This document shows, piece after piece, positions 11,052-43,736 of a stretch of 43,736 bases of DNA. Under the pieces are notes generated by a model. That model was not told the origin of the DNA, ran no database searches, and worked only from the letters and a program-made list of their open reading frames with translations. Position 1 is the stretch's first letter, and each line of letters begins with the position of its first letter. The stretch comes from a virus. The stretch lies in UHGV virus genome UHGV-0197631; one strand, written 5' to 3'. A program made the translations under genes and the position numbers.

Positions 11052-12785
11052 TTAAAGCGAGCGGATCCCATAGGACTCAATGTGGTCAGACAGCGTGTCT
11101 TCTTTCTCGTACAGCATGGCTCTGCCAACCGCCATAATCAGCGCAACTGCACCATCGATTTTGTTTTCCGCCTGCTCTTTGACGGGCTTCACCACATCAT
11201 CGTTACCTGGCATGTTTTTGCCGACCACATTGCCGATACACCAGGTCATGATGGGATTGCCGTCATGATGAAAGCGTCCCGATTCAATCGCTGCTTCCAG
11301 CTCTTTCATCGGATCGGACATATTGGCGAAGTTCTGGACGATAGTGACGGGATTCAGATCTTCATCAGCAAGGTCATGTGACAGCCCGGTCGCCCCGAAG
11401 GGGTCGATGGGTGACTCACTGACCGGGCTGATTTTGTTCGCCGCTTTGGCCTCCTCGAGGATGTAGCGATAATCCACCTCTGCACCATCGGTAACGGTCA
11501 GGACGCCCATTTCCACCCATTTCTGAAAGCGTTCGGCTGTCCGTCTATCTTCATTTTTCTCGACGCTGTACACCGTGTCATACGGTACCCAGAAGCGCGG
11601 GGCCACACTGTAGTAATGCGTTTTACCGTCAATCTCGCGGGTATAAAGTCGCGCCATGCTGTTCATATCCAGCTTACGCGCCAGGTCAAAGGCCAGAATG
11701 CACGGCTGCCCCTCGAACTGCTCAAGGGTCAGTGATTTATCCTCGCAGCTCTGCCAGCTCACCAGGTTGAAATACGCCGAACGCGCCGACACCCAGATAT
11801 TGAGGTGTTTTGTTTTAAAGACGTTTGCCAGACGGGCGTTATTTTTCGCACGCTGCTGCTGACTTAACAAAAATTCGCGATAAACCGACACGCCAATATT
11901 TGGATTGGCTTTTTCCAGCACCTGCGGGTCGGTCCAGTCGTCACCTTCATCAACGGTATAGATGATCCCGAACAGTTCATCGTTAGGCACCGAGCCGTTG
12001 AGCATCTCGATGACTTCCCGCCGCTTGTCGTAGCACGGCCCCTCAATGTTGTACCCGGCGGTGGTGATGGCCCACATCAGTGGCTGACGTCGCGCCCCCA
12101 TCCCGGTAAGCATTGTGGTATAAAGCGCATCGGTGGCATGCTCGTGATATTCATCCACCACCGCACAGTGGGGTGATGAGCCATCACCGGGGTTGCCGAT
12201 CAGCGGTTCAAACCGCGCGCCATCCTCCGGACGGTTCATGTTTGAGGCGTTAACCTCAATCCCGAACGCTTCCGTCAGCATGGGTGTGCGTTTACACATC
12301 AGTCGCGCCGGGCGAAAGACTTCCCACGCCTGTTTCTCTGTCGTGGCACCGGAATACACTTCCGCGCCAAACTCGTTATCACAGGCAAAACAATACAGGG
12401 CAACACCGGCAGAGATTGCTGATTTGCCGTTCTTACGGGGGATTTCGGTGTACACCTCCCGGAAGCGGCGCAACCGGGTGCCTTTATTGACCCAGCCAAA
12501 CGCACAGCAGATCACAAATAGCTGCCACGGCTCCAGCGTGATGGGCATCCGTTTGAATGCCCACTCCCCCTTGGTGTGCGGCAACAGCTGAATAAATTTC
12601 GCGGCCCGTTCAGCCAGGTCCTTGTCGAAGCGGTAACGAAACGACTTACTTTTTTCCGCCATCAGGTCATCAAGATGGCGCTGGCAGGCCTGAATCACAA
12701 ACTGGCAGGCCACAATCTTTCCGCGCACGACATTCCGGGCATACTGATTGGCAGCATTTACGTTGGGGTAAGATTTCCGGCTCAT
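11052..12785 (-). CDS. terminase large subunit
   Basis: 577 aa; ATPase N-terminal region and nuclease C-terminal region character; precedes portal. Confidence 0.85.
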
Positions 12786-18086: not shown

Positions 18087-18929
18087 TCAATGAACGGTAT
18101 CGAGCAGCTTTAACAGCTCAGGGAATCGGGATTCGAAGAAATGCGGCTGCGTCTCGCGCGGATTTGCGGGACTGGTGATGTTCTTGCCGAACATGCAGCC
18201 TTTCGCTGTCAGCGACCAGAATTTTTTGATGTTGTTAATCGCAGTGCGGCTGTATCGTTCACGTTGTTCAACGATCCCCAGCTTCGCCATCTGGTGATAT
18301 GCCTGATTAGCTGTCAGGCGGATACCATACTGCTTCAGCAGTGCACTCAGTGACAGCGTGGGGCGGCTTGAGCCATCAGGCGCGTCAGCAGGAGCATCAA
18401 TGGCATAGCGCGGTGCCAGATTCGGTAAGCCAACAGCCTCCTGGAGTTTCTGACAGGCACCAAGCACTGATGAGTTAGACAGGTTTAACTCCCTGCGCAT
18501 AAAGTCCAGCAGAATCACACCAGCCTGCATCTTGTCAGCAGCCTGTCCGGATAATTTTTCCGGTGCGCTGGTTACCATGTCGAAAGTACGGATCACTTTC
18601 AGATGGAATGACGGGCTGATCCACATTGCATAGGCATACACCAGTTCCTTGCAGACATAAGTTCCCCGTTCATTTCCCCCATGAATCACACTCACCGGGT
18701 CAACACCCAAATTCTGGGTGTTGGTCAATTCATGAACAAGTTCAACAGTTTGTTGGCTGGAAAGAAACTTTCCTGGCTCCTTGGTTCTGGCATTTGCACC
18801 AGATGCTACTGCTGCGCGATGCAGATCGTTCAGGCTGTAACGTCCATAAGCATCACGACGAACTTCAATACCATCAATGACCATCAGATTATTCATACTT
18901 CGTTTCTCCTCTTGATCAGGCGGCTGCAC
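18087..18929 (-). CDS. KilA-N domain protein
   Basis: 280 aa; N-terminal VIDGIEVRRDAYGRYSLNDLHRA... typical of KilA-N DNA-binding domain. Confidence 0.6.
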   Translation of the reverse strand: MQPPDQEEKRSMNNLMVIDGIEVRRDAYGRYSLNDLHRAAVASGANARTKEPGKFLSSQQTVELVHELTNTQNLGVDPVSVIHGGNERGTYVCKELVYAYAMWISPSFHLKVIRTFDMVTSAPEKLSGQAADKMQAGVILLDFMRRELNLSNSSVLGACQKLQEAVGLPNLAPRYAIDAPADAPDGSSRPTLSLSALLKQYGIRLTANQAYHQMAKLGIVEQRERYSRTAINNIKKFWSLTAKGCMFGKNITSPANPRETQPHFFESRFPELLKLLDTVH

Positions 18930-28347: not shown

Positions 28348-28697
28348 TGGAGCCATACAGCCTCACACTCGATGAGGCCTGTCATTTTCTCAAGATATCC
28401 AGACCGACTGCCATTAACTGGATACGCACAGGGCGTCTTCAGGCAACACGCAAAGATCCCACTAAGAATAAATCTCCTTACCTCACAACACGACAAGCCT
28501 GCATTGCGGCTCTTCAGTCTCCGCTGCATACTGTCCAGGTGAGCGCGGGTGATGGCATAACAGAGGAAAGAAAATGTCACTCTTCCGCAGAGGTGAAATA
28601 TGGTACGCCAGTTTCACATTGCCGAACGGTAAAAGATTTAAACAGTCTCTTGGAACAAAGGACAAAAGGCAGGCGACAGAACTCCATGACAAGCTAA
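28347..28697 (+). CDS. xis: excisionase-like HTH protein (Xis)
   Basis: [33 protein letters not shown] is an HTH_17/AlpA-Xis type motif; AGAGGTG Shine-Dalgarno upstream; ORF overlaps the int start, so the true C-terminus is uncertain. Confidence 0.5.
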
Positions 28698-29737
28698 AGG
28701 CTGAAGCATGGCGGGTCAGCAAACTTGGTGAAATACCTGATATAACGTTCGAGGAAGCGTGTGTCAGGTGGCTTGAAGAGAAAGCACATAAAAAATCACT
28801 GGACGATGACAAAAGCCGGATCGGATTCTGGCTTCAACATTTCGCAGGAATGCAACTAAGAGACATTACTGAATCAAAAATTTATTCAGCAATGCAGAAA
28901 ATGACGAACCGGCGTCATGAGGAAAACTGGAAACTCAGGGCAGAAGCATGCAGAAAAAAAGGGAAACCTGTTCCAGAATACACGCCAAAACCAGCGTCCG
29001 TTGCAACGAAGGCTACGCATCTTTCATTTATAAAGGCCCTACTAAGAGCCGCAGAGCGTGAATGGAAAATGCTGGATAAGGCACCAATTATTAAAGTGCC
29101 TCAACCAAAGAATAAACGGATCCGCTGGCTGGAGCCCCATGAAGCACAAAGGCTGATTGATGAATGTCCGGAGCCATTAAAGTCTGTTGTTGAATTTGCA
29201 CTGGCAACAGGCTTAAGACGCTCGAACATCATCAACCTTGAATGGCAACAAATAGATATGCAGCGCCGGGTGGCATGGATAAACCCGGAAGAGAGTAAAT
29301 CAAACCGCGCAATTGGCGTTGCGCTGAATGATACTGCATGTCGCGTATTGAAAAAACAAATCGGGAATCATCACCGTTGGGTATTTGTGTACAAGGAAAG
29401 CTGTACCAAACCAGACGGAACGAAAGCGCCAACAGTAAGGAAGATGCGGTATGACGCAAACACAGCCTGGAAAGCGGCGCTGAGACGGGCTGGTATTGAT
29501 GATTTCAGATTTCACGACTTGAGACACACCTGGGCAAGTTGGCTGGTTCAAGCCGGAGTCCCGTTGTCAGTGTTACAGGAAATGGGAGGCTGGGAGTCTA
29601 TCGAAATGGTTCGTCGATATGCTCACCTTGCACCTAATCACCTTACCGAACACGCACGGCAAATAGACTCGATCCTGAACCCATCGGTCCCAAATTTGTC
29701 CCAGTCAAAAAATAAGGAAGGTACAAATGATGTGTAA
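28574..29737 (+). CDS. int: tyrosine integrase (lambda-type)
   Basis: 387 aa; catalytic-region motifs ([10 protein letters not shown] ... RRYAHL); ends 14 nt before the tRNA-Thr-derived att core. Confidence 0.85.
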
Positions 29738-29751
29738 CTTATTGATTTAAA

Positions 29752-29800
29752 TGGTGCCGATAATAGGAGTCGAACCTACGACCTTCGCATTACGAATGCG
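29752..29800 (-). other. att core: 49-nt 3' portion of tRNA-Thr(CGU) (thrW-type), not a complete tRNA gene
   Basis: Reverse complement reads CGCATTCGTAATGCGAAGGTCGTAGGTTCGACTCCTATTATCGGCACCA (anticodon loop with CGT, T-arm, acceptor 3' end, CCA); D-arm and 5' acceptor half are absent. Confidence 0.7.
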
Positions 29801-29984
29801 ACGTTAATATACTTTCAACTGTTTGAATAGTCACTCTAAAACTCATTTTTATCATTATAAAACATACTATTACCATAAATCACCTATTGATTAAAATTGA
29901 CAGGTGTTGATGTTTATTCCCGCAATTTACTTACACCAGCCGTTACATTACTGTAAGACAGAAATCCTCAACTGGAACCAGACT

Positions 29985-31283
29985 ATGGCGCTTTCAAGAC
30001 AAAAACTCACCTTCGAAAGACTTCGCAGATTTACTTTACCGGAAGGAAAAAAACAAACCTTCCTTTGGGATGCGGATGTTACAACTCTGGCATGCCGAGC
30101 AACTAGCGGAGCAAAAGCCTTCGTATTCCAAAGCGTTTATGCGGGAAAAACCCTTCGCATGACCATTGGCAACATTAATGACTGGAGGATTGATGAAGCA
30201 AGGAGCGAGGCAAGACGGTTACAAACATTGATCGATACCGGGATAGATCCGCGAATTGCTAAGGCTGTAAAAATCGCAGAAGCAGCATCTCAGCAGGCAG
30301 AATCACGTAAAACAAAAGTGACTTTCTCCGTCGCCTGGGAAGACTATCTTCAGGAATTGCGAAACGGTATCAGTGCAAAAACCAAGCGTCCATATTCTAC
30401 TCGATACATTGCAGATCACATCAACTTGTCCAGCCGTGGAGGGGAAAGTAAAAAAAGAGGTCAGGGCCCAACCTCAGCTGGACCATTAGCTTGTTTGCTC
30501 GACCTACCGCTATCAGATCTAACACCGGACTATATTGCTGCATGGCTGAGTACAGAAAGACAAAATAGACCGACTGTCACTGCCCATGCTTATCGCCTGC
30601 TGCGTGCTTTCATCAAATGGAGTAATTATCAGAAAAAATATCAGGGAATTATTTCTGGCGATCTTGCACAAGATTACAACGTAAAAAAAATGGTGCCAGT
30701 GTCTGCGAGCAAAGCCGATGATTGCTTGCAAAAAGAACAACTCAAAAGCTGGTTTAGATCCGTGCGTGGCCTTAGTAGCCCTGTTGCGTCAGCGTATCTT
30801 CAGGTGCTTTTACTTACCGGTGCGCGGCGTGAAGAAATTGCGTCACTTCGCTGGTCAGACGTCGATTTCAAATGGGCAAGCATGCGAATTAAAGACAAAA
30901 TCGAAGGAGAACGCATCATCCCTCTCACACCTTATGTTTCTAGCCTATTAAACGCGCTGTCCGCAGCCCCAAATGCTGAGGTAAGTAAGGAGAATTGGGT
31001 TTTCAGAAGTCATAGCAAAAGCGGCAAAATTATTGAACCTCGTTCAGCACACAATCGGGCTTTAGCGCAGGCTGAATTACCGCACATTAGTGTACATGGG
31101 CTACGCCGTAGTTTTGGTACGCTTGCCGAGTGGGTTGAAGTGCCAACTGGTATTGTTGCGCAGATTATGGGCCATAAGCCTAGTGCTCTTGCTGAGAAAC
31201 ACTATCGCCGCCGTCCACTGGATCTGCTGAGAAAATGGCATGAGAAAATTGAGACCTGGATCTTAGAACAGGCTGATATTTGA
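29985..31283 (+). CDS. tyrosine integrase (P4/CP4-57-type)
   Basis: Start at MALSRQKLTFERL; N-terminal arm-binding-like region, C-terminal catalytic region (HGLRRSFGT ... HY); second integrase abutting the same att core. Confidence 0.8.
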   Translation: MALSRQKLTFERLRRFTLPEGKKQTFLWDADVTTLACRATSGAKAFVFQSVYAGKTLRMTIGNINDWRIDEARSEARRLQTLIDTGIDPRIAKAVKIAEAASQQAESRKTKVTFSVAWEDYLQELRNGISAKTKRPYSTRYIADHINLSSRGGESKKRGQGPTSAGPLACLLDLPLSDLTPDYIAAWLSTERQNRPTVTAHAYRLLRAFIKWSNYQKKYQGIISGDLAQDYNVKKMVPVSASKADDCLQKEQLKSWFRSVRGLSSPVASAYLQVLLLTGARREEIASLRWSDVDFKWASMRIKDKIEGERIIPLTPYVSSLLNALSAAPNAEVSKENWVFRSHSKSGKIIEPRSAHNRALAQAELPHISVHGLRRSFGTLAEWVEVPTGIVAQIMGHKPSALAEKHYRRRPLDLLRKWHEKIETWILEQADI

Positions 31284-31418
31284 AAATAAATCGATGTTGA
31301 TTAGTGTTGATTTTATTATAAATCAATTAGTTATAAACAAATCGCTTAGTTGACATCACTAAGCTTTATGGTGACAATTCTTCCACTTTAATACATTAAC
31401 TCAAAGAGGATACATGGA

Positions 31419-31862
31419 ATGAATAATCCAGCTTTTGACATACCAGAGCGGGAGATGCTTATCATCATAGATTCAAATGCTGAATCAACATGTCCAGAAG
31501 TTAATTGGGCCGAATGCGAGGCACAGGTTAACGCTCTGTTTAAAAATGCCTATAGTGAAACTAAATGCTTCATTGCTCGTGCTAAGGTAAGATTCTCGCA
31601 GCACATGAGAAGTATTAGCCGTACAGTTTTGCAATGCTTCTCATCCCCACGTCTTCAATCCAAAAACCGTGCTTCAAGATCTCGCCGTAGCCATAGCTCT
31701 TCACGGAGCAGCGGCCGCTCAGCCAAATCTAGTGATAGTGACAGTTCCCCCTCGGACCCCTTACCTCTTCATAACCTATCTCTAAGTCTTCATTTAAATC
31801 TCTCTTCGCTTTTTTCACTTTTTAGCATGGCTCATACCTCTATCGACGAGGTGATCAAATGA
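31419..31862 (+). CDS. hypothetical protein with Ser/Arg-rich low-complexity C-terminus (possibly degraded)
   Basis: 147 aa; C-terminal half is SRSRRSHSSSRSSGRSAKSSDSDSS..., atypical for a folded protein. Confidence 0.25.
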   Translation: MNNPAFDIPEREMLIIIDSNAESTCPEVNWAECEAQVNALFKNAYSETKCFIARAKVRFSQHMRSISRTVLQCFSSPRLQSKNRASRSRRSHSSSRSSGRSAKSSDSDSSPSDPLPLHNLSLSLHLNLSSLFSLFSMAHTSIDEVIK

Positions 31863-32098
31863 GCGGCATCCTATTATCTCAGTTACCTAAAGATATTCCT
31901 GCATCTTCCCTGATTTACGTAAAGGAAGTCGCCAGCCTTCTCGGACTACAGCCTCAGACGATCAGGAAGTGGATTTGCCATGATTCATTGCCTGAAGGGC
32001 TACCAACACCAAAAAAGCTAAACAGAAAAAACTGCTGGCTAAGAACCGATATTGAATCCTTTATTGCAACAAAGTTTTCAAATAACAGTAAATTCTGA
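31859..32098 (+). CDS. alpA: AlpA-family transcriptional regulator / excisionase-like
   Basis: 79 aa with HTH_17-like motif (YVKEVASLLGLQPQTIRKWI); position after integrase as in CP4-57. Confidence 0.65.
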   Translation: MSGILLSQLPKDIPASSLIYVKEVASLLGLQPQTIRKWICHDSLPEGLPTPKKLNRKNCWLRTDIESFIATKFSNNSKF

Positions 32099-32106
32099 GG
32101 CAAAAG

Positions 32107-33498
32107 ATGGAAAAACTTCCTTACCCAATTGATGCCTTTCCAATAATCATGAGAAATGCTGCCTATGAAGAGCATAATATCACTAAAGCTCCCATGGCAA
32201 TGATAGGGTCTGCAATGTTGAGCGCAGTATCCTTGGCTTGCCAAAGCAAAGTTGATGTAGAAAGGCCTGGAGGACTTAAAGGTCCAACATCTCTTTTTTT
32301 TGTTACAATCGCAGAATCAGGCGAACGAAAAAGTGCAATTGACAAAAATGTATTTTCTGCGATACATGAATGCGAAAAAATGTTCGCACAGCAACACGCC
32401 GAAGAAATGAATTGGTATTCCGGTGCCGTTGAGATCTATGAAGCAGAAAAGAAAGCTCTATTTTCCAAATTAAAAATGCAGATAAAAAAAGGTCTTGATA
32501 CCTCTCAAACCAAAGATGATATCGATGAATTAAATTCAAAAAAGCCTGTCCTTCCCCGTTCACGAAAATTAATCATGAGTGACACCACTCCAGCGGCATT
32601 AAAAGATCATTTATCTGGGGAAGGTCGATCGGTCGGCATTCTCTCAGATGAAGGTGGTGTGGTGTTTGGTGGTTCGGCACTGAATAATCCTTCGCTCATC
32701 AATACAATATGGAGTGGCGGGGATGTACATATTGACAGGAAAAACAGGGCACCAGTGACTATATCTGATGCAAGACTCACATTATCAATTATGGTTCAGC
32801 AAAATTTATTGAATACATTTCAAAGAAGCAATAATAAAATTGCAAAGGATTCAGGATTTAATGCCAGATGCCTATTCAGCCATCCTGTATCAACTCAAGG
32901 GTATCGGCAGATATATAATCCAGTAATATCCAGGGAACATATGCCAATTTTTAACGGACGCATTAAGGAACTCATTTTATCTGGTTTACATAATGACAGA
33001 GTGCTGTTGCAATTTTCACCAGCCGCAGCCAGCGCATGGATCGACTGGTATAATTTCATTGAAACTCAAATGGCCTCAACAGGAGAACTATTTAATATCA
33101 GAGATTGTGCATCAAAAATTGCCGAGAACACAGCAAGAATCGCAGCATTAATGCACTTCTTCAGAGGTGATGAGGGCGATATAACCCTCATAGCTATGGA
33201 TGCGGCCGAAAAAATCAGCACATGGTATCTCGAAGAATATCAACATTTTTTCACAAGTAGCAATAATAGCAACGACGAAAATGAACTATTCGACTGGATT
33301 ATACATTATTGCCGTTACCATGGTCTGGCACGTTTGAAGAAAAACATCATTCTTCAATATGGACCAGTTCGACTCAGGAGTAAAAAGACTATAGAACCAT
33401 TGCTGAATAACCTTGCGTATACTCAGAAAATTCTTTTTGAAACTAGGGGAAGAACCACTTACTTAATCCCAGTAAAATTAGGATCACGGCATTTATAA
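32107..33498 (+). CDS. DUF3987-like protein (YfjI-like, P4-type island replication-associated)
   Basis: 463 aa; synteny int-alpA-DUF3987 matches CP4-57-type islands. Confidence 0.55.
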   Translation: MEKLPYPIDAFPIIMRNAAYEEHNITKAPMAMIGSAMLSAVSLACQSKVDVERPGGLKGPTSLFFVTIAESGERKSAIDKNVFSAIHECEKMFAQQHAEEMNWYSGAVEIYEAEKKALFSKLKMQIKKGLDTSQTKDDIDELNSKKPVLPRSRKLIMSDTTPAALKDHLSGEGRSVGILSDEGGVVFGGSALNNPSLINTIWSGGDVHIDRKNRAPVTISDARLTLSIMVQQNLLNTFQRSNNKIAKDSGFNARCLFSHPVSTQGYRQIYNPVISREHMPIFNGRIKELILSGLHNDRVLLQFSPAAASAWIDWYNFIETQMASTGELFNIRDCASKIAENTARIAALMHFFRGDEGDITLIAMDAAEKISTWYLEEYQHFFTSSNNSNDENELFDWIIHYCRYHGLARLKKNIILQYGPVRLRSKKTIEPLLNNLAYTQKILFETRGRTTYLIPVKLGSRHL

Positions 33499-33690
33499 GT
33501 TAAATAGAATGAATCTAACTGCAGAGTTATTTTTACGTAAAAAACAAACTCTCAGTGAAATAAATGACACAAAATCAAGTTGGATAGGTATTATTACACC
33601 TGACCTTATTATTTATATCTATTCATCTTGTTATATATACATTATACAACATCAACTGAATTAATCCTTATAGATAGATGGGTATATACT

Positions 33691-34308
33691 ATGAAACAAT
33701 ATCAAGGATCACATGGTCTTCATGTGGCAGCCTGGCGTGATAGCATAATTGATGTTCTTGACAATGCTTCAAATGAATTTAGTCGCATTATGGCTGTGCG
33801 AGTAGACCTTCACCATCCAAGGATATTGGATAACGGAGACACTGTTTGCTGCTTCCCTAATCTCAAGTCAGGTGAAATTTCGAGGTTTATTAACTCCCTA
33901 AAAGCGATGCTTGCTGCTCATGAATATCGACGAGCACAGAATGGAACCCGAATCTACCCAAACACTTTACGCGATATGTGGGCTAAGGAGTACTCTCAAT
34001 CAGGAAAATGCCATTATCATGCCTGTCTTGTATTTAATAAAGATGCATATTACCACCTTGGTAGCTATGATGATGATTGCCTGAGGGGCATGATTATAAA
34101 CGCCTGGTACAGCGCATTAGGGTTACAGCCTGAGGATTGTCCTGGGCTGGTTCATTTCCCTGAAAACGGGAAATATATTCTAGACAAAAATAAACCAGGT
34201 TTTATTTTTGATTATCATGCCCTACTAAAGCGGCTCGAATATCTTACCAAGGTTGACTCGAAGGTTTTTGGGGAAGGTGATAGGAATTTTGGGTGCAGTC
34301 GGGGTTAA
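33691..34308 (+). CDS. inovirus Gp2-family protein (YfjJ-like)
   Basis: Start at MKQYQGSHG; synteny after DUF3987 gene. Confidence 0.5.
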   Translation: MKQYQGSHGLHVAAWRDSIIDVLDNASNEFSRIMAVRVDLHHPRILDNGDTVCCFPNLKSGEISRFINSLKAMLAAHEYRRAQNGTRIYPNTLRDMWAKEYSQSGKCHYHACLVFNKDAYYHLGSYDDDCLRGMIINAWYSALGLQPEDCPGLVHFPENGKYILDKNKPGFIFDYHALLKRLEYLTKVDSKVFGEGDRNFGCSRG

Positions 34309-34361
34309 TCATTTAACTAGGCCTTGTTATACATATTAGCAAGGCCTAAAGCTCAACTAAC

Positions 34362-35336
34362 CTACAGAAGACGAATTAACTCTTCCCGTGAAATCCTGCG
34401 ACGATGTACCTCATCATGGCAAACATTACAGAGAGTAATTAAGTTATCCAGTGTATTTTCTCCGCCATCAGCATGATGTTCAATATGATGTAACTCGAGG
34501 AATGTTCTGGGGTCATTTGCGATTTTACGGGCATGAGACCAGTGGCAGTGCCTGCATGCATGATGGTCACGCTCAAGTACAGCGACACGTACAGGATCGG
34601 GGATCTTTCGGTCATGCACTTCAGCCTGTCGATCTTCCTCGAGTAAATAAGCTCCGACTTCTAGCTCCGGTCTACCGGAATTTTTGGTGGCGATTGGCCA
34701 GCCATCTTCTGTACGTAGCTCACGTGTTCGTCGCGCCCACTCCTTGCTATCGTTTGCAAGGTATCGTAGTTCTTCGCCAGTCACGGGACGGCCAACGTTC
34801 TTACGCAGATAAGACAGAATTTTATCTTTCGTGGAGATTTTGCTTCGTCTGAGGACATTAGCTTCATTCCACCGCAGAGCTGCTTCCCTGTCCTGTTCTG
34901 CTGTCATCAGCGCATAAACGTCGGTTTTAAGAACGTTAATCGCACTGGCATGGAGCTCTTCCAGTGTAACCTCTCCTTGTTCGATCATTTCCTTCAACGT
35001 AGTGCCGCTTAATACGGACCAACCAAACTGCACACGCAGCTCTCTGATCCTTCTGGCATATTCACTGATACCCGCAACAACCATCAGTTCGTCACCATGG
35101 ATGATGACGCCGGGATATTTGAGTAAATAAGCCAGAATTCGGTCACGGGCTGAATTGCAATTCTCATCATTCATCAAAGAACTGCCTAAATCCCGCAGCA
35201 AATGATTGGCGGGGATTAATGCCAAAACCTGTTCCCGTAGGGAATCATCCTTGAGCTTAAACTCAAAGTCGGTAATCAACGCCAGAAGCTGTTTACGCAG
35301 CGTTTCCGGTACGCTCTTCTTCGATCTTCTCGCCAT
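34362..35336 (-). CDS. HNH endonuclease with tandem N-terminal repeat domains (putative restriction endonuclease)
   Basis: C-terminal HNH motif (HHACRHCHWSH...ELHHIEHHADGGENTLDNLITLCNVCHDEVH); two similar internal segments (EYARRIRELRVQFGWSV / EWARRTRELRTEDGWPI); overlaps the methyltransferase gene by 44 nt. Confidence 0.65.
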   Translation of the reverse strand: MARRSKKSVPETLRKQLLALITDFEFKLKDDSLREQVLALIPANHLLRDLGSSLMNDENCNSARDRILAYLLKYPGVIIHGDELMVVAGISEYARRIRELRVQFGWSVLSGTTLKEMIEQGEVTLEELHASAINVLKTDVYALMTAEQDREAALRWNEANVLRRSKISTKDKILSYLRKNVGRPVTGEELRYLANDSKEWARRTRELRTEDGWPIATKNSGRPELEVGAYLLEEDRQAEVHDRKIPDPVRVAVLERDHHACRHCHWSHARKIANDPRTFLELHHIEHHADGGENTLDNLITLCNVCHDEVHRRRISREELIRLL

Positions 35337-36423
35337 TTTGAATTAGGTATTCCATTAAATTGAGAACGTAGGTCGCAATCTTCTGCGCAAAAACTGGTGG
35401 TACTGCATTGCCAATTTGCCTTGCGATTTCGGTTTTTGAACCCACAAAAACAAATTCATCCGGGAAACTCATCAGGCGCGCGGCTTCACGATGCGTAATT
35501 GGACGATGTTGCTCTGGATGTAGATAACGCCCCTTCTCAGGCTTAAAGAACTCCGTGCGGATCGTGACAGAAGGCCTCTCCCACCACAAACGGCCAAACA
35601 AATCCGTTCCACCCGAGGTTTTTTTAATCCAGCAGGCAGGGGTAATGTCAGGTCTATTCTTTTGCAAATCAAACCGGTTTCCCCCTACCGGAACAGCTCG
35701 GTAGCGTTCCTGCGAAAGCGCAGTTGGATTTCGACCAAAGTGGAGATCTAATGGGGGTGGAAGATCACGCACCTCAGTCCCAACCGGCTCAGGCAAATCA
35801 CCTATAAAATCTCTGACTGTCAGCCAGGCTGGTAGATCCGCCCCCTTATCAGGATTCTGGTGCGACTGTACAGGTGGGAACGTTGGGATGCTATTCAGCA
35901 GGAATCGCTCTTTTTTAATTCCAATTGCAATAGCACGTTTGCGCGTCTGCGGAGCCCCGTAGTCGGCTGTGTTAAGGACAGAAGGATTCAGAAGCAGAAA
36001 ACCCATGCTTTCAGCACGAGCACAAATGTCCTGAAATTCATCACTGGACAAGAGGCCCGGAACATTTTCCATCACAAATACAGAAGCAGAAGACCTCTCA
36101 ATGATATCCATATACGGCTCCCAGAGCGCCCGTCGATGGTCCCTTTCTCGGTTCTTGTTGAGCAGGCTGAATCCCTGGCATGGCGGGCCGCCGATAACAA
36201 TATCAGCCTCAGGAATGCTGTTTTCAGCAATCCACTCTTCGATGTTCGCTACAATGCCATGCTCGCCAAAGTTGGCATTGTATGTACTGATAGCCGCCTT
36301 GTCATTGTCCAGAGCTAGGACGCTTTCAAAATGAGCGCCATTTTCCCCCTTCATGAAGCCGCAGGATAAACCGCCAGCGCCACAAAACAGATCAATGACT
36401 TTTAATTTATTGATTTTACTCAT
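35293..36423 (-). CDS. DNA (cytosine-5)-methyltransferase
   Basis: Motif I FCGAGG, motif IV PPCQGFS, ENV motif; 376 aa. Confidence 0.85.
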   Translation of the reverse strand: MSKINKLKVIDLFCGAGGLSCGFMKGENGAHFESVLALDNDKAAISTYNANFGEHGIVANIEEWIAENSIPEADIVIGGPPCQGFSLLNKNRERDHRRALWEPYMDIIERSSASVFVMENVPGLLSSDEFQDICARAESMGFLLLNPSVLNTADYGAPQTRKRAIAIGIKKERFLLNSIPTFPPVQSHQNPDKGADLPAWLTVRDFIGDLPEPVGTEVRDLPPPLDLHFGRNPTALSQERYRAVPVGGNRFDLQKNRPDITPACWIKKTSGGTDLFGRLWWERPSVTIRTEFFKPEKGRYLHPEQHRPITHREAARLMSFPDEFVFVGSKTEIARQIGNAVPPVFAQKIATYVLNLMEYLIQNGEKIEEERTGNAA

Positions 36424-36734
36424 TAAAATATAATCCTAGTTCCTACATACATATTCATGGTTAAGTATATCATAATGCGAAACTGTATGTATCCACAGTA
36501 ACAAGGTGATACGTTGTGAAAAATGCTTGGAAGTATATTGCTAGCATCATATCCCTTAATATCGATGAAAAGCAGTTTAATTATTGCTCGTAGCGGACTT
36601 TTCGACGCTTCGGGCCGTCCGCTCAGTGCCATTAGCAGACATTTTTGATATGTGGTTCCTACTAACCTGATTGTCTTAAAGAGTTTATAATTGTGCTGGA
36701 AAAGAAATTCTGATCATTATGTAGGAGAAACGTT

Positions 36735-37571
36735 GTGGCTAACGAAAATACCGAGTACGAGAAACTTACCCAAGAGATCTACCAGGCCATATGCAATGCT
36801 GAGGGAGTTAAGAATTTATCAGTTCAGCATAATGTAAAAGTCCCAGGAAAATCTGGCTGTAACCACCAGATAGATGTTTACTGGGAATTTGAAATAATGG
36901 GTGTAACACACCGCGTGGCCATCGAATGTAAAAACTATTCAAGCGAAGTTTCTGTTGGGAAAGTACGCGACTTTTTCGGTGTACTACATGATATCAGTAA
37001 TGTGAATGGTATTTTCGTGACCAAAGTTGGTTACCAAAGTGGAGCTGTAAAATTTGCCAATCACTACGGTATCAATCTGAAAGAAATACGATTCCCAACA
37101 GCAACAGACTGGAAAGGAAGAGTAAAAGATATTGTCATAACAATCACTGCGTTCTTTGCTAATATCAAAGAGCGAAACATTCATTTTGATTTTGAGTGGA
37201 TCCGTGAAAACACAAATGTGAAAGAAGGAGATCGCCTAGTACTTTCAGGCATGGCTGATGAGATAAAAATAGTTGATGCGAATGGAGAACTAATCACAAC
37301 CCTATACGACATTGAAAATGAACTCCCGCGAGATGTTGAGATAATTGATAAAACCTTTGAAAAAAAATTCAATGAGGCATTCATTACTACTCCATCTGGC
37401 GATAAATTTAAAATTTACGGGATCAGCTATTTGTACGATGTTGTTTCTGAATCTGAAACATCGATTAGCGAAGGCGATTTGATTGCTCGTGCAATACTCA
37501 AAGATGTCGGTTCGGGAGCAATAAAATTCTTTGACCAAAGCGGGAATATTCGTGATGTTCGGGATGTGTAA
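36735..37571 (+). CDS. Mrr-like PD-(D/E)xK nuclease domain protein with uncharacterised C-terminal domain
   Basis: GTG start with AGGAGA Shine-Dalgarno; N-terminal QIDVYWEF...VAIECKNY (D...ExK) with Mrr-type context; ~150 aa C-terminal region of no recognisable family; AT-rich. Confidence 0.5.
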   Translation: MANENTEYEKLTQEIYQAICNAEGVKNLSVQHNVKVPGKSGCNHQIDVYWEFEIMGVTHRVAIECKNYSSEVSVGKVRDFFGVLHDISNVNGIFVTKVGYQSGAVKFANHYGINLKEIRFPTATDWKGRVKDIVITITAFFANIKERNIHFDFEWIRENTNVKEGDRLVLSGMADEIKIVDANGELITTLYDIENELPRDVEIIDKTFEKKFNEAFITTPSGDKFKIYGISYLYDVVSESETSISEGDLIARAILKDVGSGAIKFFDQSGNIRDVRDV

Positions 37572-37839
37572 CTAAATATATCAAGTGAAGTTATTCGTAA
37601 TGTGAACAGCCATGACTTTCGTGGCTATTTTCATTGCAGGTAAAAAACTTACTTCAGCTTCTCGCGCAAAGCTGTTCTTGATGTCTCCGAGACTGTCCGC
37701 CCCCTGCCAAAAGCTGACATTGCCAACATCGAAGGACATTGCTCTATGAGGCGCAGGTCAAACGCATTACAGGATCTTAGTGAGCAGGTTTCGGCATTCA
37801 AAAAATAAAGGCAAGGTGGAAACCACCATGCCTATTAAA

Positions 37840-38868
37840 CTAAGCGTTATCTATGTATTTCAATGCATAGCTTTCGAAGCTGTTTATTTTATTAAAATAA
37901 TCAGGAATAAATGCATGGACAAATGTATCAAGGTCAGTATTAATCGTGTTTGTATTGATTAATTCAATCATGTGTTCAGGTTCGCTGTCCAAAAAGAGAA
38001 TTGCAAGTATGAGACCGAACTTTGGTGCTATTTCTCTAAATATCAAATAAGTAAGTTCACCGTAAGGCTTCACGCTTTCATTCAAAATGCCAGAGATATA
38101 CTCCCTGCCATTCATGCCGCGTTTATTATAGGAATCTATAATTTCGTAAAAATCGCTGCCATCGATATCAACTTCAGGGTCAAAATCATTGAGTGATACA
38201 TCGTTGTTTAGACAATATCTTACTGTTGAAATACACAAGTAAAGAAAAAGAAGGGTTCCCAGACTACCTTGGCGTTTTACTGGATTTCCGGACTCTGATA
38301 GGTATCGATATTGGCAATAGTACGCAATGGTTTCACACAAACTAATATGACGTATCAAGAGACTATCATCATTACAAGCGCGTGATATACTAAAATCAGC
38401 GGCATGACCGAGTTCATGCACAAAGAGGTCTGTAGATGTCACTCCAAATGGATCATCTTGAGTAAAAATGAAATGTTCATCATCTCTGTTGGAAATACAA
38501 AAACCCTCAGAACTTTTTCTGATTTGATTCTCAATATGAAGCCACTCAACCTTGTTCAGATTAACTTTTAGGCAATTCTCAACAAAATCGCGCGCTACAT
38601 TAAATTCACGCTCTGAAATAGGATTGCCTAATGAAGATGGGTCAGTGGAACTCAAACGCTTCAGAAATTCAGAAGAAAAATATAAAGGCGAAACCAGATC
38701 AACAAGAGCCGTGACTGAATTCAGGAGTTTATTGTGCACATCCCCTACAATTTCTTCGCCAGTCCTGTGTAATGCCTCATCAAATTCCTGGAAAGAGTTT
38801 CCATTTTTAGTAGCAATCACGCATTGCGTTTCAAGTTCATAGTATTTTTTTCGCAGTATTGAATGCAT
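37840..38868 (-). CDS. HExxH motif protein (putative metallopeptidase-like), unknown function
   Basis: Single HExxH (VHELGHAAD) in 342 aa; AT-rich; convergent with the Mrr-like gene. Confidence 0.4.
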   Translation of the reverse strand: MHSILRKKYYELETQCVIATKNGNSFQEFDEALHRTGEEIVGDVHNKLLNSVTALVDLVSPLYFSSEFLKRLSSTDPSSLGNPISEREFNVARDFVENCLKVNLNKVEWLHIENQIRKSSEGFCISNRDDEHFIFTQDDPFGVTSTDLFVHELGHAADFSISRACNDDSLLIRHISLCETIAYYCQYRYLSESGNPVKRQGSLGTLLFLYLCISTVRYCLNNDVSLNDFDPEVDIDGSDFYEIIDSYNKRGMNGREYISGILNESVKPYGELTYLIFREIAPKFGLILAILFLDSEPEHMIELINTNTINTDLDTFVHAFIPDYFNKINSFESYALKYIDNA

Positions 38869-39387
38869 AATTCTCACCAAATATAAATTAAGTATATTAT
38901 TTAAGAACGATATCCTTCTTTTGCAGAATCACTATATCATCTTCTTTCTTACTTTGGCAGGTTTAACAATCCGTCTGTAATGTCTAGCATTCTAAATGCG
39001 TTCTATGCCTTTAATGTACCCCTGCTGTCGATGTTATATCACCTTGCTTTTCGGTGTACCGGTAGCGTGATAAGATGCGTATTGAATCATTGACACTGAT
39101 TGATGTAGAACTAGACATCAACTCAACATAAGTTAAATTTTCCCGTCAGAAACGGCCTGCTCGACATTTATTAAAAAAGGCAATATTTGTCCTTTATCAA
39201 CTCAGTTGTTAGCAAAAGTCCGAACCTCCGCTCATCGCTCGAAGCGGTCTGTTGATGTTTACTGTGAAACAGGCAGATTCGTGCAAGTAGCGGACAATGT
39301 AAGAAAAAATAACGGGTCGGACTAACCTTGCGAAGGCTTTCTAAGTCTGTCTGCAAACATCTCTTCAAAAGGCTGAGGCCCTTATTG

Positions 39388-39678
39388 GGTAATGACTCCA
39401 ACTTACTGATAGTGTTTTATGTTCAGATAATGCCCGATGACCTTGTAATGCAGCTCCACCGATTTTGAGAACGACAGTGACTTCCGTCCCAGCCTTGCCA
39501 GATGTTGTCTCAGATTCAGGTTATGTCGCTCAATGCGCTGAGTGTAACGCTTGCTGATAACGTGCAGCTTTCCCTTCAGGCGTGATTCATACAGCGGCCA
39601 GCCATCCGTCATCCATACCACGACCTCAAAGGCCGACAGCAGGCCCAGAAGACGCTCCAGCGTGGCCAACGTGCGTTA
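39388..39678 (-). mobile_element. IS1 remnant (terminal inverted repeat plus 3' end of insB)
   Basis: Begins with IS1 terminal repeat GGTAATGACTCCAACTTA...; encodes the InsB C-terminus ([66 protein letters not shown]); similarity stops near 39678. Confidence 0.8.
39403..39669 (-). pseudogene. insB: insB C-terminal fragment of IS1
   Basis: 88-codon ORF matching the InsB C-terminus from memory; N-terminal part of the transposase absent. Confidence 0.75.
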
Positions 39679-39773
39679 CCTAACAATAAACCTGTTTAAA
39701 TATCCAGATAAAAACATTCAATCTGGGTCAAATGAGTGATACAGTTTCACCCATAAGACCCAATGGAGGCAAT

Positions 39774-41207
39774 ATGTCTGAATTTGAATTACTGGCGCAG
39801 GATCTGCTTGAGAAAGCAGAAGCGGAAGAACAACTGCGACAGGAAAATGATAAAAAGCTGCTCGGGCAGGTGCTGGAAATCTATGACCAGAAGTACGTGG
39901 CTGAACTGCTTAGAAAAGTTGGTAAAAATGAGTGGAGTCGCGAGACTCTTAATCGCTGGATTAATGGTAAGTGCTCACCTAAGACGCTGACGTTAGCCGA
40001 AGAGGAACTTCTACGAAAAATGCTTCCGGAAGCGCCTGCACATCACCCTGACTATGCCTTCCGGTTTATTGACCTGTTTGCTGGGATTGGAGGTATACGG
40101 AAGGGCTTCGAAACCATCGGTGGCCAGTGCGTTTTTACCAGTGAATGGAATAAAGAGGCTGTGCGCACATATAAAGCTAACTGGTTTAACGATGCTCAGG
40201 AACACACTTTCAATCTCGATATTCGGGAAGTCACGCTCAGTGATAAACCTGAAGTACCTGAAAACGATGCCTATGCTTACATTAATGAGCATGTGCCGGA
40301 TCATGATGTACTTCTAGCAGGTTTCCCCTGTCAACCGTTCAGCCTTGCGGGCGTAAGCAAGAAAAACTCGCTCGGGCGCGCGCATGGTTTCGAATGTGAG
40401 GCTCAGGGAACGCTTTTCTTCGATGTGGCGCGTATTATACGCGCAAAAAAACCTGCCATCTTTGTTCTTGAAAACGTTAAAAACCTGAAGAGCCATGACA
40501 AGGGTAAAACCTTTAAAGTCATCATGGATACCCTCGACGAACTGGGCTATGAAGTTGCGGATGCAGCTGAGATGGGCAAAAACGATCCTAAAGTTATCGA
40601 CGGAAAGCACTTTTTACCTCAGCACCGAGAACGTATCGTTTTGGTCGGTTTCCGTCGTGATCTGAACATTCACCAGGGCTTTACCCTGCGCGATATTAGT
40701 CGTTTTTATCCGGAACAGCGTCCGTCATTTGGCGAACTGCTGGAACCCGTGGTTGACAGCAAATATATACTGACGCCGAAACTCTGGGAGTATCTCTATA
40801 ACTACGCCAAAAAGCACGCAGCTAAGGGTAACGGATTCGGTTTTGGCCTCGTTAATCCTGAAAATAAAGAAAGCATTGCCCGTACGCTTTCTGCTCGCTA
40901 TCACAAAGACGGGTCTGAAATTCTGATAGACCGTGGCTGGGATATGGCCACAGGTGAAACAGACTTCGCGAACGAAGAAAATCAGGCGCATCGGCCCCGC
41001 AGGCTGACTCCACGAGAGTGCGCGCGCCTTATGGGTTTTGAAAAAGTAGATGGCAGGCCTTTTCGCATTCCTGTGTCAGACACTCAGTCGTACAGGCAGT
41101 TCGGTAACTCCGTAGTGGTGCCCGTGTTTGAAGCCGTAGCCAAACTGCTTGAACCTTATATCCTGAAAGCGGTTAATGCCGATTCGTGCAAGGTTGAACG
41201 AATCTGA
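39774..41207 (+). CDS. ecoRIIM: EcoRII-type DNA (cytosine-5)-methyltransferase (Dcm-like, CCWGG specificity inferred)
   Basis: From [12 protein letters not shown] with GGAGG Shine-Dalgarno; motifs FAGIGG, PCQPFS, ENV; collinear with E. coli Dcm and with M.EcoRII as I recall it. Confidence 0.85.
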
Positions 41208-41212
41208 TCGCT

Positions 41213-41236
41213 CCTCCCGGTATTTATGCCGGGAGA
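41213..41236. terminator. bidirectional hairpin between convergent ecoRIIM and ecoRIIR
   Basis: TCCCGG tatttatg CCGGGA stem-loop in the 33-nt gap between the two stops. Confidence 0.45.
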
Positions 41237-41240
41237 TAAT

Positions 41241-42449
41241 CTATGGAATATCTGCGTAAAGCCCTGTCAGCTCAGCAATAAACGCACCTAGCGTCATTAG
41301 CTCAGCTCTCACCGCCTCCGGGTATTTTTTGTGCAGCGATGATGGCACGACCAATCTGACACCCGACTCCCGCATCTCCCGATATTGAGCCAGAGAAACT
41401 CCCTCTTGGAGTGTAAACAGATGCACCTGATGAATTTTATCGGCCTCATTCAGTATCTGACGCCAGCGATCCTTACAGGTAGTCTTGACTGCCAGCATGC
41501 GCAGATTTTCTACGGGAAACTCAGTATCGTGGTAAGCCCCTGCGGAAGGGAAAAGGAAATCGGGTTTTTTATTACCTTCTGTGATGGCCTGCGTCGCAAA
41601 GTGTCGCAGGCCGTGCTCAATGAATAGATGCTCCAGGTGCAGTTCCAGCGACTTCCCGGCTCTGGATTTACGGCGATTGCTGACAGAATTGGCCAGCGCA
41701 ATAAATTCATCCACAGAGCCAAATCCTTTCCGGATGATATCCAGAACATGCAGTTCCTCAACCAATAGAAATATGTCGTACTCCACGCGCCGGCGGTCAA
41801 GAAGTTGCTCATCCGGATCAAGGGAATTTTTCACATAATGGCTGGCTGCATACTGAATAATTTCACTTCCCGACGGAAAGCGCAGGTGCCAGTCTTCAGG
41901 TAGAATATATTTATGATTTACTGGCGCTTGCTGTAGAGATAGTCCGCCTAGAATCTGTCCTGCGGGGCCGGATATAAGCGCTCCGGGTATAACTTCACCA
42001 ATAGCGGTCTCAATGACGTCCTCTTCATCAGTGCTGGCGCATACCCAAATATTTACTTCCTTACAGTCCCCCCCTTGCTCATCAAGCTTGAAAGCCAGGA
42101 GCGTCAGAGCCCCTGTATTTTCAGGATTCTGAAGTGGGCTGCCTCTACCCCAGCGGGTAATCCTTTTTTCATTCCGGGTTTTACCAAAATGACGGCTGTT
42201 ATAATAAATTGCCCGGGCTTCGCTGTCAGGGCAATCATGCGATGACACATGTGCGGTGAGAAAAACCGAAGGGTTCAGTTCACGGGTATGGTTGATAGAC
42301 GGAAAGAGTTTTTCAACGATACCTGAAGGGATATAAAGCCCTACCTGGTGACCACCTGTTGCGCCGGTATCGTTGGCGGAAAGGCGTTTGATGTAGACGA
42401 AGTAATTCTCACATGCGATCTCAAGTAGCCAGTTGTGGAAAACCGACAT
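41241..42449 (-). CDS. ecoRIIR: EcoRII-type restriction endonuclease
   Basis: 402 aa from MSVFHNWLLEIACENYFVYIKRLSANDTGATGGHQVGLYIP, matching my recollection of R.EcoRII; GGGG Shine-Dalgarno 6 nt upstream of ATG 42449; convergent with the methyltransferase as in the EcoRII system. Confidence 0.85.
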   Translation of the reverse strand: MSVFHNWLLEIACENYFVYIKRLSANDTGATGGHQVGLYIPSGIVEKLFPSINHTRELNPSVFLTAHVSSHDCPDSEARAIYYNSRHFGKTRNEKRITRWGRGSPLQNPENTGALTLLAFKLDEQGGDCKEVNIWVCASTDEEDVIETAIGEVIPGALISGPAGQILGGLSLQQAPVNHKYILPEDWHLRFPSGSEIIQYAASHYVKNSLDPDEQLLDRRRVEYDIFLLVEELHVLDIIRKGFGSVDEFIALANSVSNRRKSRAGKSLELHLEHLFIEHGLRHFATQAITEGNKKPDFLFPSAGAYHDTEFPVENLRMLAVKTTCKDRWRQILNEADKIHQVHLFTLQEGVSLAQYREMRESGVRLVVPSSLHKKYPEAVRAELMTLGAFIAELTGLYADIP

Positions 42450-42607
42450 AAGCATCCCCTGTTACCCTGAAACTCTACTCACCATTTTTTCATGATTATA
42501 TACAAACAGCCAGAAAGGCTGTTACAGACGATTTGATCTGCAACCTATTGGTTAAATTAATGTATCAAAAACGATGGTTTTTGTGACAGTCTTGAAAAGT
42601 CCTGACT

Positions 42608-42632
42608 TGTCATTTTCAGAAGACGACTGCAC
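42608..42632. repeat. Tn402/Tn5053-family 25-bp terminal inverted repeat (IRt-like)
   Basis: TGTCATTTTCAGAAGACGACTGCAC, close to the remembered IRt of Tn402/class 1 integrons; coincides with an abrupt rise in GC content. Confidence 0.55.
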
Positions 42633-42750
42633 CAATTGACGGGGCGTAACGCCAGGTGTGCAGTCGGCTCCTGACCACGCAATATCAGAAGTCATCTGCA
42701 CCAATCTCGACTATGCTCAATACTCGTGTGCACCAAAGCGAGGTGTGAGC

Positions 42751-43233
42751 ATGGCGTCAGACACATTACCAATTGCCGAGCAGGGCGTGGCCACCCTGCC
42801 CGATGCGGCATGGGCACAGGCCCGGCACCGGACCGAAATCATCGGGCCGCTGGCAGCGCTTGAAGTGGTTGGGCATGAAGCCGCCGATGCCGCTGCTCAA
42901 GCGCTGGGCCTATCCAGGCGGCAGGTGTATGTCCTGATCCGGCGTGCCCGGCAAGGTGCTGGGTTTGTGACGGACCTGGTTCCCGGCCAGTCCGGCGGCG
43001 GAAAAGGCAAGGGACGCTTGCCGGAATCAGTTGAGCGCATCATCCGCGAGTTGCTGCAAAAGCGCTTCCTGACCAAGCAGAAGCGTAGCCTGGCGGCGTT
43101 CCACCGCGAGGTCGCGCAGGCTTGCAAAGCGCAAAAGCTACGGGTGCCGGCGCGCAACACTTTGGCCCTGCGGATCGCCGGCCTCGACCCGCTCAAGGCC
43201 ACTCGCCGCCGGGAAGGGGTCGGTTCCGGCTGA
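42751..43233 (+). pseudogene. tniA: tniA (Tn402/Tn5053-family transposase), truncated after ~160 codons
   Basis: N-terminus IAEQGVATLPDAAWAQARHRTEIIGPLAA...GLSRRQVYVLIRRARQGAGFVTDLVPGQSGGGKGKGRLPE matches TniA from memory; reading frame ends at the inserted Tn3-family inverted repeat. Confidence 0.65.
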
Positions 43234-43253
43234 GGGCGAAATGACACCCTAAG
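43216..43253. repeat. 38-bp terminal inverted repeat of a Tn3-family transposon
   Basis: GGGGTCGGTTCCGGCTGAGGGCGAAATGACACCCTAAG: starts GGGG, ends TAAG, and contains the tnpA stop codon, as in Tn3/Tn21-family ends. Confidence 0.55.
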
Positions 43254-43736
43254 CTTTCGGTTCCTTGGGCCAAAGATATTCGCCAGTCAGTAGAATGTGC
43301 GCCCAGCCCAATGGGGATATGTGGGGAAGAAATTCAGGGGGAACATCCAACCCTTCGTTCCGCCGCTCCGTGACGGCATGACCAAGATGGACGGTATTCC
43401 AGTAAATGATCACCGCAGTCAATAAATTGAGCCCAGCGATTCGGTAGTGCTGCCCCTCTGTCGTGCGATCGCGAATTTCCCCCTGCCTCCCGATACGGAG
43501 CGCATTTTTGAGCGCATGGTGGGCCTCTCCCTTGTTAAGACCGATCTGAGCACGCCGCTGCATGTCCGTATCCAGGATCCACTCAATAATGAAAAGGGTC
43601 CGTTCAATACGACCAACTTCACGAAGCGCAACTGCAAGGTTGTTTTGTCGTGGGTAAGAAGCGAGCTTGCGCAGGAGTTGGCTGGGCCTGATTTTGCCAG
43701 CGGTCATCGTCGCGGCACAACGGAAAATATCAGGCC
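43249..43736 (-). CDS. tnpA: Tn3-family transposase TnpA, C-terminal part (gene continues beyond window end)
   Basis: C-terminal region (LLTAVIIYWNTVHLGHAVTERR...HISPLGWAHILLTGEYLW) typical of Tn3-family TnpA; stop lies inside the 38-bp repeat. Confidence 0.65.
   Translation of the reverse strand, partial: PDIFRCAATMTAGKIRPSQLLRKLASYPRQNNLAVALREVGRIERTLFIIEWILDTDMQRRAQIGLNKGEAHHALKNALRIGRQGEIRDRTTEGQHYRIAGLNLLTAVIIYWNTVHLGHAVTERRNEGLDVPPEFLPHISPLGWAHILLTGEYLWPKEPKA

Follow-up and report, generated by a model that had tools for sequence, protein, structure and literature searches.

The res-hunters, transposons of the Tn402/Tn5053 family, have as their classical target the region upstream of resolvase genes. 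Tn5403, an element of a different kind, is said to have been described in 1994 by Rinkel et al. as a cryptic unit transposon of the Tn3 family with 38-bp inverted repeats (IRs) and a tnpA-tnpR gene pair. The literature on Tn5403 likewise presents a cryptic tnpA-tnpR unit transposon with 38-bp IRs and no resistance genes, which transposes replicatively with 5-bp duplications and often truncates, or is truncated by, other elements (PMC5142620, PMC7319535, PMC5371602, PMC13514068), and documents it as a replicative "reorganising" element (PMC5142620). Among the res-hunters, the element of plasmid pBS228 has been named Tn5718Δ (AM261760) and assigned to the Tn5053 family (PMC7765201). Here we describe a place where pieces of these two kinds of element meet: the right end (42608-43736) of the 43,736-nucleotide (nt) virus genome UHGV-0197631, the whole of which is called the window below. 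Judged from its sequence, this right end is the stump of a mercury-type res-hunter whose transposase gene, tniA, has been cut by an end of Tn5403, and the composite stands on a fragment of IncN plasmid backbone. Taken as a whole, with the order of events included, a set of nested, inactivated mobile-element ends stacked on an IncN backbone fragment is, with high confidence, the best explanation of the locus.

The reference loci used for comparison were pBS228 (L003) and pAKD4 (L004), an IncFII/IncN plasmid with a mercury-resistance (mer) res-hunter (L002), the widespread IncN integron (L005), an uninterrupted IncN-type plasmid (L001) and pSTW0522-51-4 (L006 and L017). The names Tn5718Δ and Tn5403 follow the literature naming of the pBS228 element and the annotation of complete Tn5403 copies. 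A first-pass annotation of the window, made from its letters, had placed a jump in GC content at about 42600, together with a 25-bp repeat resembling IRt, the terminal inverted repeat at the t-end of this family, and both are present. GC content, counted per 200 bp, lies between 0.375 and 0.495 up to 42599 and between 0.545 and 0.685 from 42600, and an exact IRt, TGTCATTTTCAGAAGACGACTGCAC, occupies 42608-42632 on the plus strand; the window has no second copy, and five reference elements (L002-L006) carry precisely this IRt. IRt opens a t-end (42608-42750, plus strand) in which a repeat search (families D1, I1 and I2) and a pattern scan located four copies of a repeat of about 17-20 bp, three of them direct (42616-42635, 42685-42704 and 42717-42736) and one inverted (42658-42674). 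These copies are putative TniA-binding sites, and their layout after IRt is the known t-end architecture of Tn402.

The t-end leads into a truncated tniA (42751-43233, plus strand), an open reading frame (ORF) that runs from an ATG at 42751 (MASDTLPIAEQGVATLPD...) to a TGA at 43231-43233. Residues 1-156 of its 160-amino-acid (aa) product are identical (156/156) to the 559-aa TniA of pBS228; the last four, VGSG, and the stop are read from the Tn5403 repeat that follows. Native nucleotide identity ends at 43215-43217, the final two G's being common to the repeat by chance. That tniA begins here and is truncated was correctly noted in the first-pass annotation; its frame, which had been placed as ending right at the repeat, extends 15 nt beyond the repeat's first base before stopping. 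The only Pfam match in the 160-aa product is the helix-turn-helix domain HTH_28, so the catalytic DDE region has been lost.

Over the entire tni end (42608-43217), megablast against PLSDB and direct comparison showed 610 of 610 nt identical to the corresponding ends in pBS228 (NC_008357) and pAKD4 (GQ983559), and many other PLSDB plasmids likewise match at 100%. In pBS228 and pAKD4, tniA is followed by tniB, tniQ and tniR and by a mercury-resistance operon. Identity falls to 94.4% with the mer-type element of L002 and to only 80.7% with a true Tn402-type class 1 integron, that of pSTW0522-51-4. Because of this difference (100% versus 80.7%) we assign the stump to the Tn5718 type and not to the class 1 integron type; the proposal that a Tn3-family end truncates a Tn402-family tni module is thus borne out, and the class 1 integron label attached to it is withdrawn. 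No tniB, tniQ or tniR was called in the window, nor, in related loci, in the DNA retrieved rightward of the junction (up to 10 kb where the contig allowed). Lacking a complete tniABQ-res-tniR module, the stump is a remnant of a Tn402/Tn5053 family member rather than a functional one. The window contains no copy of the variant repeat IRi, which has G at positions 5 and 20. The window likewise holds neither the intI1 nor the resistance cassettes that the first reading had suggested seeking, and BLAST annotations place intI1 only in other records.

Immediately after the native tniA sequence stands a 38-bp terminal inverted repeat, GGGGTCGGTTCCGGCTGAGGGCGAAATGACACCCTAAG (43216-43253, plus strand), the sole GGGG-N-TAAG motif of its type in the window and identical at 38 of 38 positions to both ends of the complete Tn5403 copies in L001 and L010 (L010 being one of the related loci introduced below). 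The predicted pairing of a 38-bp GGGG...TAAG repeat with the C-terminus of an outward-reading Tn3-family TnpA is found exactly here: the 3' end of Tn5403 tnpA, comprising the C-terminal 161 codons, lies at 43249-43736 on the minus strand and runs off the window, and since its stop (TAG, 43249-43251) falls within the repeat, the gene must read outward. Minus-strand 43252-43734 is open without stops and matches positions 800-954 of the 954 in NCBIfam NF033527 (Tn3 family transposase; E 4.7e-65) as well as Pfam DDE_Tnp_Tn3 (E 3e-55); the NF033527 score of 220 bits falls short of the cut-off of 500 set for full-length proteins only because the window holds no more than 161 of the 965 residues. All 521 nt of the Tn5403 part are identical to the complete copy in L001. 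The segment 43210-43736 is covered to at least 80% in 2,263 PLSDB records; of 2,663 records with a match, 2,493 reach an identity of 99% or more, and among the PLSDB matches listed the annotation reads "Tn3-like element Tn5403 family transposase". The comparison that had been suggested, with the ends of Tn21, Tn1696 or Tn5393, thus leads instead to Tn5403. Complete copies in L001 and L010 measure 3,664 bp, have perfect 38-bp repeats and carry only a 965-aa tnpA and a resolvase gene (about 201 aa). The identities of 610/610 and 521/521 exclude a chance match for the tni and Tn5403 parts, and nothing in the window is capable of self-transposition: the res-hunter retains one end and no transposase, and of Tn5403 the window has a single end with 521 bp.

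The fusion of these two pieces is a recurrent one. An exact-protein look-up found the 160-aa fusion product on 104 contigs and in 237 blocks of an assembly collection, and NCBI lists it as "MULTISPECIES: hypothetical protein" from Enterobacteriaceae, including Enterobacter cloacae. A protein called hypothetical on about 100 public contigs is therefore a TniA stump fused to a Tn5403 end. Ten of the 104 contigs (L007-L016) were examined as related loci; over 10,986 bp, L013, from a JGI metagenome, differs from the window by 0 mismatches and L011 by 3. Nucleotide searches of PLSDB (megablast), complete RefSeq E. coli genomes, GTDB representatives, JGI metagenome contigs and IMG/VR did not return the tniA/Tn5403 junction, the junction between backbone and IRt was absent from IMG/VR, and our literature search found no paper on the tniA/Tn5403 junction. 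These nucleotide searches first suggested a unique arrangement, a view overturned by the 104 contigs. As the exact fusion product recurs on these contigs and L013 is identical, the junction is genuine and widespread, though unannotated. That the junctions are assembly chimeras, made from reads joined across repeated elements, might be suspected in a window that ends inside a multicopy element and in a block bounded by repeats (IS1 and Tn5403). The idea is scarcely credible, given that the same fusion protein occurs in NCBI genomes (a closed 4.9-Mb chromosome among them) and in ENA, JGI and Logan assemblies, and that the backbone/IRt junction falls at a legitimate transposition target common to a closed plasmid.

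That target lies in the IncN backbone. The segment 39388-42607 is about 99% identical to IncN backbones, IS1 remnant included (99.1-99.8% for the matches listed, which also span DNA beyond 42607). It begins with the IS1 remnant (39388-39675, right end approximate, minus strand), recognized by Pfam DDE_Tnp_IS1 (E 3.5e-44) and containing the ORF of a transposase C-terminal fragment at 39403-39669; the IS1 terminal repeat, GGTAATGACTCC..., has its first base at 39388, and with it begins, on the left, the module common to all related loci. Next come the gene for an EcoRII-type DNA cytosine-5 methyltransferase (39732-41207, plus strand; NCBIfam PRK10458, E 1.4e-284; Pfam DNA_methylase and DNA_meth_N) and that for the 404-aa EcoRII restriction endonuclease (41241-42455, minus strand; Pfam EcoRII-N, E 6.4e-61, and EcoRII-C, E 1.4e-70). 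The mechanically called methyltransferase ORF has 491 aa; plasmid records annotate 477 aa (1,434 bp), so the start is probably 14 codons downstream, at about 39774. An intergenic region (42456-42607) follows, which by alignment with L001 continues there to a serine-resolvase gene of the resP type.

The last five bases before IRt, TGACT (42603-42607), are the target of the res-hunter. Uninterrupted L001 reads ...GTCCTGACT and then TCTCCCG..., with a gene matching Resolvase and HTH_7 about 95 bp downstream; since L001 continues from the target into this gene, the res-hunter landed just upstream of the IncN resolvase gene. Insertion into the res site itself would fit both this position and the behaviour of the family. 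In pSTW0522-51-4 (NZ_AP022435) a Tn402-type class 1 integron occupies exactly this base pair, likewise with IRt towards EcoRII, and is bordered left and right by a copy of TGACT. This integron is complete and carries blaOXA-2, qacG2 and aadA11 (positions L006 9209 and L017 6440-6450). With only 80.7% identity between their tni ends, the two elements are most simply read as having inserted independently at one preferred position, which suggests that the region upstream of the IncN resolvase gene is a hot spot for res-hunter insertion.

A different origin of the stump has also been considered, namely from a class 1 integron of the Tn402 type such as IncN resistance plasmids typically carry, with intI1 and cassettes lying past the window edge. 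Class 1 integrons do stand beside EcoRII in many IncN plasmids, one of them at the identical target, and the 25-bp IRt is the same in the Tn402-type and mer-type lineages. We consider this origin very unlikely: the tni sequence itself is 80.7% identical to the Tn402 type against 100% for the mer-type Tn5718Δ and pAKD4, the common IncN integron lies about 100 bp farther left with an AACAG duplication, and none of the related loci examined shows intI1 to the right of the junction. For that same difference in position and duplication, the common IncN class 1 integron (e.g. L005) was rejected as the same insertion. The mer res-hunter beside EcoRII in L002 was also rejected as the same event, its tni end being 94.4% identical and the backbone at its junction different.

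The identities, boundaries and orientations of these components are shown here, as are the target that two elements have in common and the repeated occurrence of the junction; the order of events, in three steps, is what we infer. In the first, a Tn5053-family mercury-type res-hunter with a tni end identical to that of Tn5718Δ would have inserted into TGACT upstream of the IncN resolvase gene, with IRt facing the EcoRII restriction gene. In the second, a Tn5403 end would have been joined to tniA at codon 156, removing the DDE domain and killing the res-hunter, either by simple insertion with later loss of the far side or directly, through an intramolecular, deletion-forming transposition by a resident Tn5403. 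In the third, the block of IS1 remnant, EcoRII restriction-modification (R-M) genes, partial res region, IRt, tniAΔ and Tn5403 would have been carried passively into several plasmid and chromosomal contexts, among them the island adjoining an SfV-like prophage in the window.

The details of the junction bear mainly on the second step. Native tniA reads ...CGGGAAGG|TCAGG... across the breakpoint, which is ambiguous by 2 bp because the repeat begins with GGGG; if the repeat is taken to open at 43216 with its canonical GGGG, as it does in complete copies, a simple insertion predicts that GGGAA is duplicated on the far side. Several observations weigh against the scheme as drawn. The complete Tn5403 of L010 is flanked by GGGAA on the left and AGGTG on the right, and the right flank is not tniA, so that the 5-bp duplication which the first-pass annotation had recommended looking for around the Tn3-family element was not found. 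The reciprocal junction, CCCC-GGGAA-GGTCAGGATG (tniA from codon 156 onward), has no counterpart in PLSDB, where a synthetic query of 405 nt was used, or among the GTDB representatives, which were scanned for the exact pattern. With neither a GGGAA duplication in L010 nor a reciprocal junction, a simple cut-free insertion is undocumented. For neither element in the window is a 5-bp duplication shown, since both far ends lie outside it, and placing the first insertion "in res" is a deduction from its position upstream of the resolvase gene and from the habits of the family. In L010 the far flank reads AGGTGGTGG... and passes into insertion sequence (IS) fragments, including an IS26 remnant. One PLSDB record (H142) has a Tn5403 end near a Tn402-type tniA, the two not being contiguous.

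The junction may instead be the endpoint of a deletion or inversion, formed when a resident Tn5403 attacked tniA intramolecularly and deleted or moved the rest of tniA, tniBQR and mer, a course that is a variant of the second step and not an alternative identity for the locus. The unequal 5-bp flanks in L010, the missing reciprocal junction in both collections, the lack of called tniB, tniQ and tniR to the right of the junction in ten of ten related loci and the reputation of Tn5403 as a replicative "reorganising" element (PMC5142620) all speak for it. On the other hand, L010 shows later rearrangements by IS26 and IS elements rightward of Tn5403, and a simple insertion whose far side was lost through these would explain the finding just as well; the support, moreover, comes from the 10 of 104 contigs inspected. 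We therefore regard the deletion or inversion endpoint as a real possibility, somewhat short of an even chance.

The related loci show what may follow the junction. Seven of them (L007, L008, L011-L014 and L016) have Tn5403 cut at bp 884 by another 38-bp Tn3-type repeat, GGGGTCAGTTTGGAGATCGGAAATTTTTGTACTATAAG, and 589 bp past this cut, just before arsR, lies a Tn1000-like repeat (in L013 at 11348-11974). The bp-884 repeat and the Tn1000-like repeat amount to third and fourth layers of nesting. In L013 and L011, the two loci closest to the window, the 884 bp of Tn5403 are followed by GGGGTCAGTTTGGAG... and then arsR. After arsR come arsDABC in L008, L013 and L014, and genes matching Pfam NicO and Trns_repr_metal, i.e. 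rcnA/rcnR-like nickel/cobalt efflux genes, in L007, L011 and L012. L009 differs: there a Tn21-like repeat, GGGGTCGTCTCAGAATTCGGAAAATAAAGCACGCTAAG (10679 onward), interrupts Tn5403 at bp 214, and beyond it stand merRTPCADE, a resolvase/transposase pair and genes for a TetR-type regulator and a major facilitator superfamily (MFS) efflux protein, the last two being probably tetR/tet(A). Tn5403 is complete in L010 and L015. L010 also holds, at 18273-18528, an inverted pair of Tn3-type repeats 256 bp apart, related to the repeat at L013 11348 and resembling a miniature Tn3-derived element.

These continuations are relevant to the idea that a complete simple nest lies just past the window, i.e. a whole Tn5403 followed by the rest of tniA, tniB, tniQ, tniR, the mer operon, IRi and the IncN resolvase gene. 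Such a nest is the default expectation for a Tn3-family insertion, and a complete Tn5403 does follow the same junction in L010 and L015. Nevertheless we think it improbable, for in L013 and L011 the element is cut at bp 884 before arsR, and in L010 no remainder of tniA follows it. The resistance cargo anticipated beyond the edge exists in the relatives, where it is metal resistance brought by further nested elements and not cargo of Tn5403 or of an integron; the expectation of integron cassettes did not hold. The window itself may continue in the same way.

On its left side the block has moved between neighbourhoods. At least four contexts abut the outside of the IS1 end: IncN transfer genes (L015 and L016), an OLD/UvrD gene pair (L008, L009 and L014), an EAL gene (L012), and, as in the window, an Mrr-like gene with a 342-aa ORF (L007, L010, L011 and L013). 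Identity among loci with different left contexts begins at 39387/39388, or in L012 at 39395, 7 bp inside the repeat. Four different sequences abutting the IS1 end imply repeated rearrangements mediated by that end, or recombination. L010, whose left context is that of the window, is a chromosome of 4.9 Mb; the IncN-derived block has therefore been captured in a chromosome. It is conceivable that the block (IS1Δ, EcoRII R-M, res', IRt, tniAΔ156 and Tn5403) is a coherent hitch-hiking module, kept by the addictive EcoRII pair, whose perfectly conserved 160-aa, HTH-only TniA fragment still binds t-end repeats and hinders incoming res-hunters or integrons; such a module, once in IncN plasmids, could have reached chromosomes as well as three or more further contexts, with the break falling each time precisely at the outer end of IS1. 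We hold this joint claim, by which the block would be more than debris, to be improbable.

To the left of the IS1 remnant the window holds a prophage and a second island. Positions 1-29800 are mostly an SfV-like myovirus prophage ending with xis and int (int, 28574-29737); positions 1-25000 show 86% coverage at 96.9% identity with Escherichia phage vB_EcoM-689R6 and about 97-99% identity with SfV, SfII and SfI. Directly after the prophage integrase comes a second island (29904-38880) that looks like a defence island. It comprises a P4-type integrase (29904-31283), an HNH endonuclease and C5-methyltransferase pair (34362-36423), an Mrr-like nuclease (36735-37571) and a 346-aa ORF with no Pfam match (37840-38880), together with a DUF3987 protein and a YagK/YfjJ protein. 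Over 29734-36611 the sequence shares 91.5% identity with a chromosome of E. coli (H100). A tRNA scan for attachment sites of prophage or island found no tRNA gene anywhere in the window.

All components of the right end, and its style of nesting, are already known, the arrangement is present in public data on about 100 contigs, and the whole is ordinary mobile-element debris whose practical value is limited mainly to correct annotation. It documents a familiar process, in which res-hunters land upstream of plasmid resolvase genes and Tn5403 truncates whatever it hits. Mildly noteworthy are only that two different res-hunters took one insertion position and that a chromosome acquired an IncN R-M block beside a prophage. 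A tni stump of the mercury-transposon type should not be read as evidence of a class 1 integron, and the EcoRII block, derived from IncN, is the mark of a transfer from plasmid to chromosome beside a prophage. The arsenic, nickel/cobalt and mercury resistance genes and tet(A)-like genes of close relatives are relevant to "viral" contigs that carry plasmid- or resistance-associated DNA.

Four known systems define the locus by comparison. With Tn5718Δ of pBS228 the window shares IRt, the repeat-bearing t-end, the first 156 codons of tniA and the orientation of IRt and tniA; Tn5718Δ sits in the parA/par region adjoining a resolvase gene, and the element in the window likewise adjoins a resolvase-gene region. 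Of the res-hunter 610 bp are left here; neither the window nor the DNA retrieved rightward of the junction in any related locus contains tniA codons 157-559, tniB, tniQ, res-tniR, the mer genes or the second terminal repeat. The integron of pSTW0522-51-4 agrees with it in IncN backbone, in target base pair, in the TGACT target and in having IRt towards EcoRII, whereas it is complete (tniABQ, tniR, cassettes and intI1), is uninterrupted by Tn5403 and has a tni end only 80.7% identical. The IncN segment IS1Δ-ecoRIIM-ecoRIIR-resP (e.g. the NZ_CP107723 plasmid and NZ_CP030335) matches 39388-42607 with the IS1 remnant included; unlike in the IncN plasmids, the segment in the window is detached from IncN replication and transfer genes and has as its neighbours an island with a P4-type integrase and a prophage resembling SfV. 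Finally, the window resembles Tn5403 in the 38-bp repeat, in the 521 bp with the tnpA 3' end, in the tnpA stop inside the repeat and in the role of truncator, and differs from the complete copies in that only one end is present.

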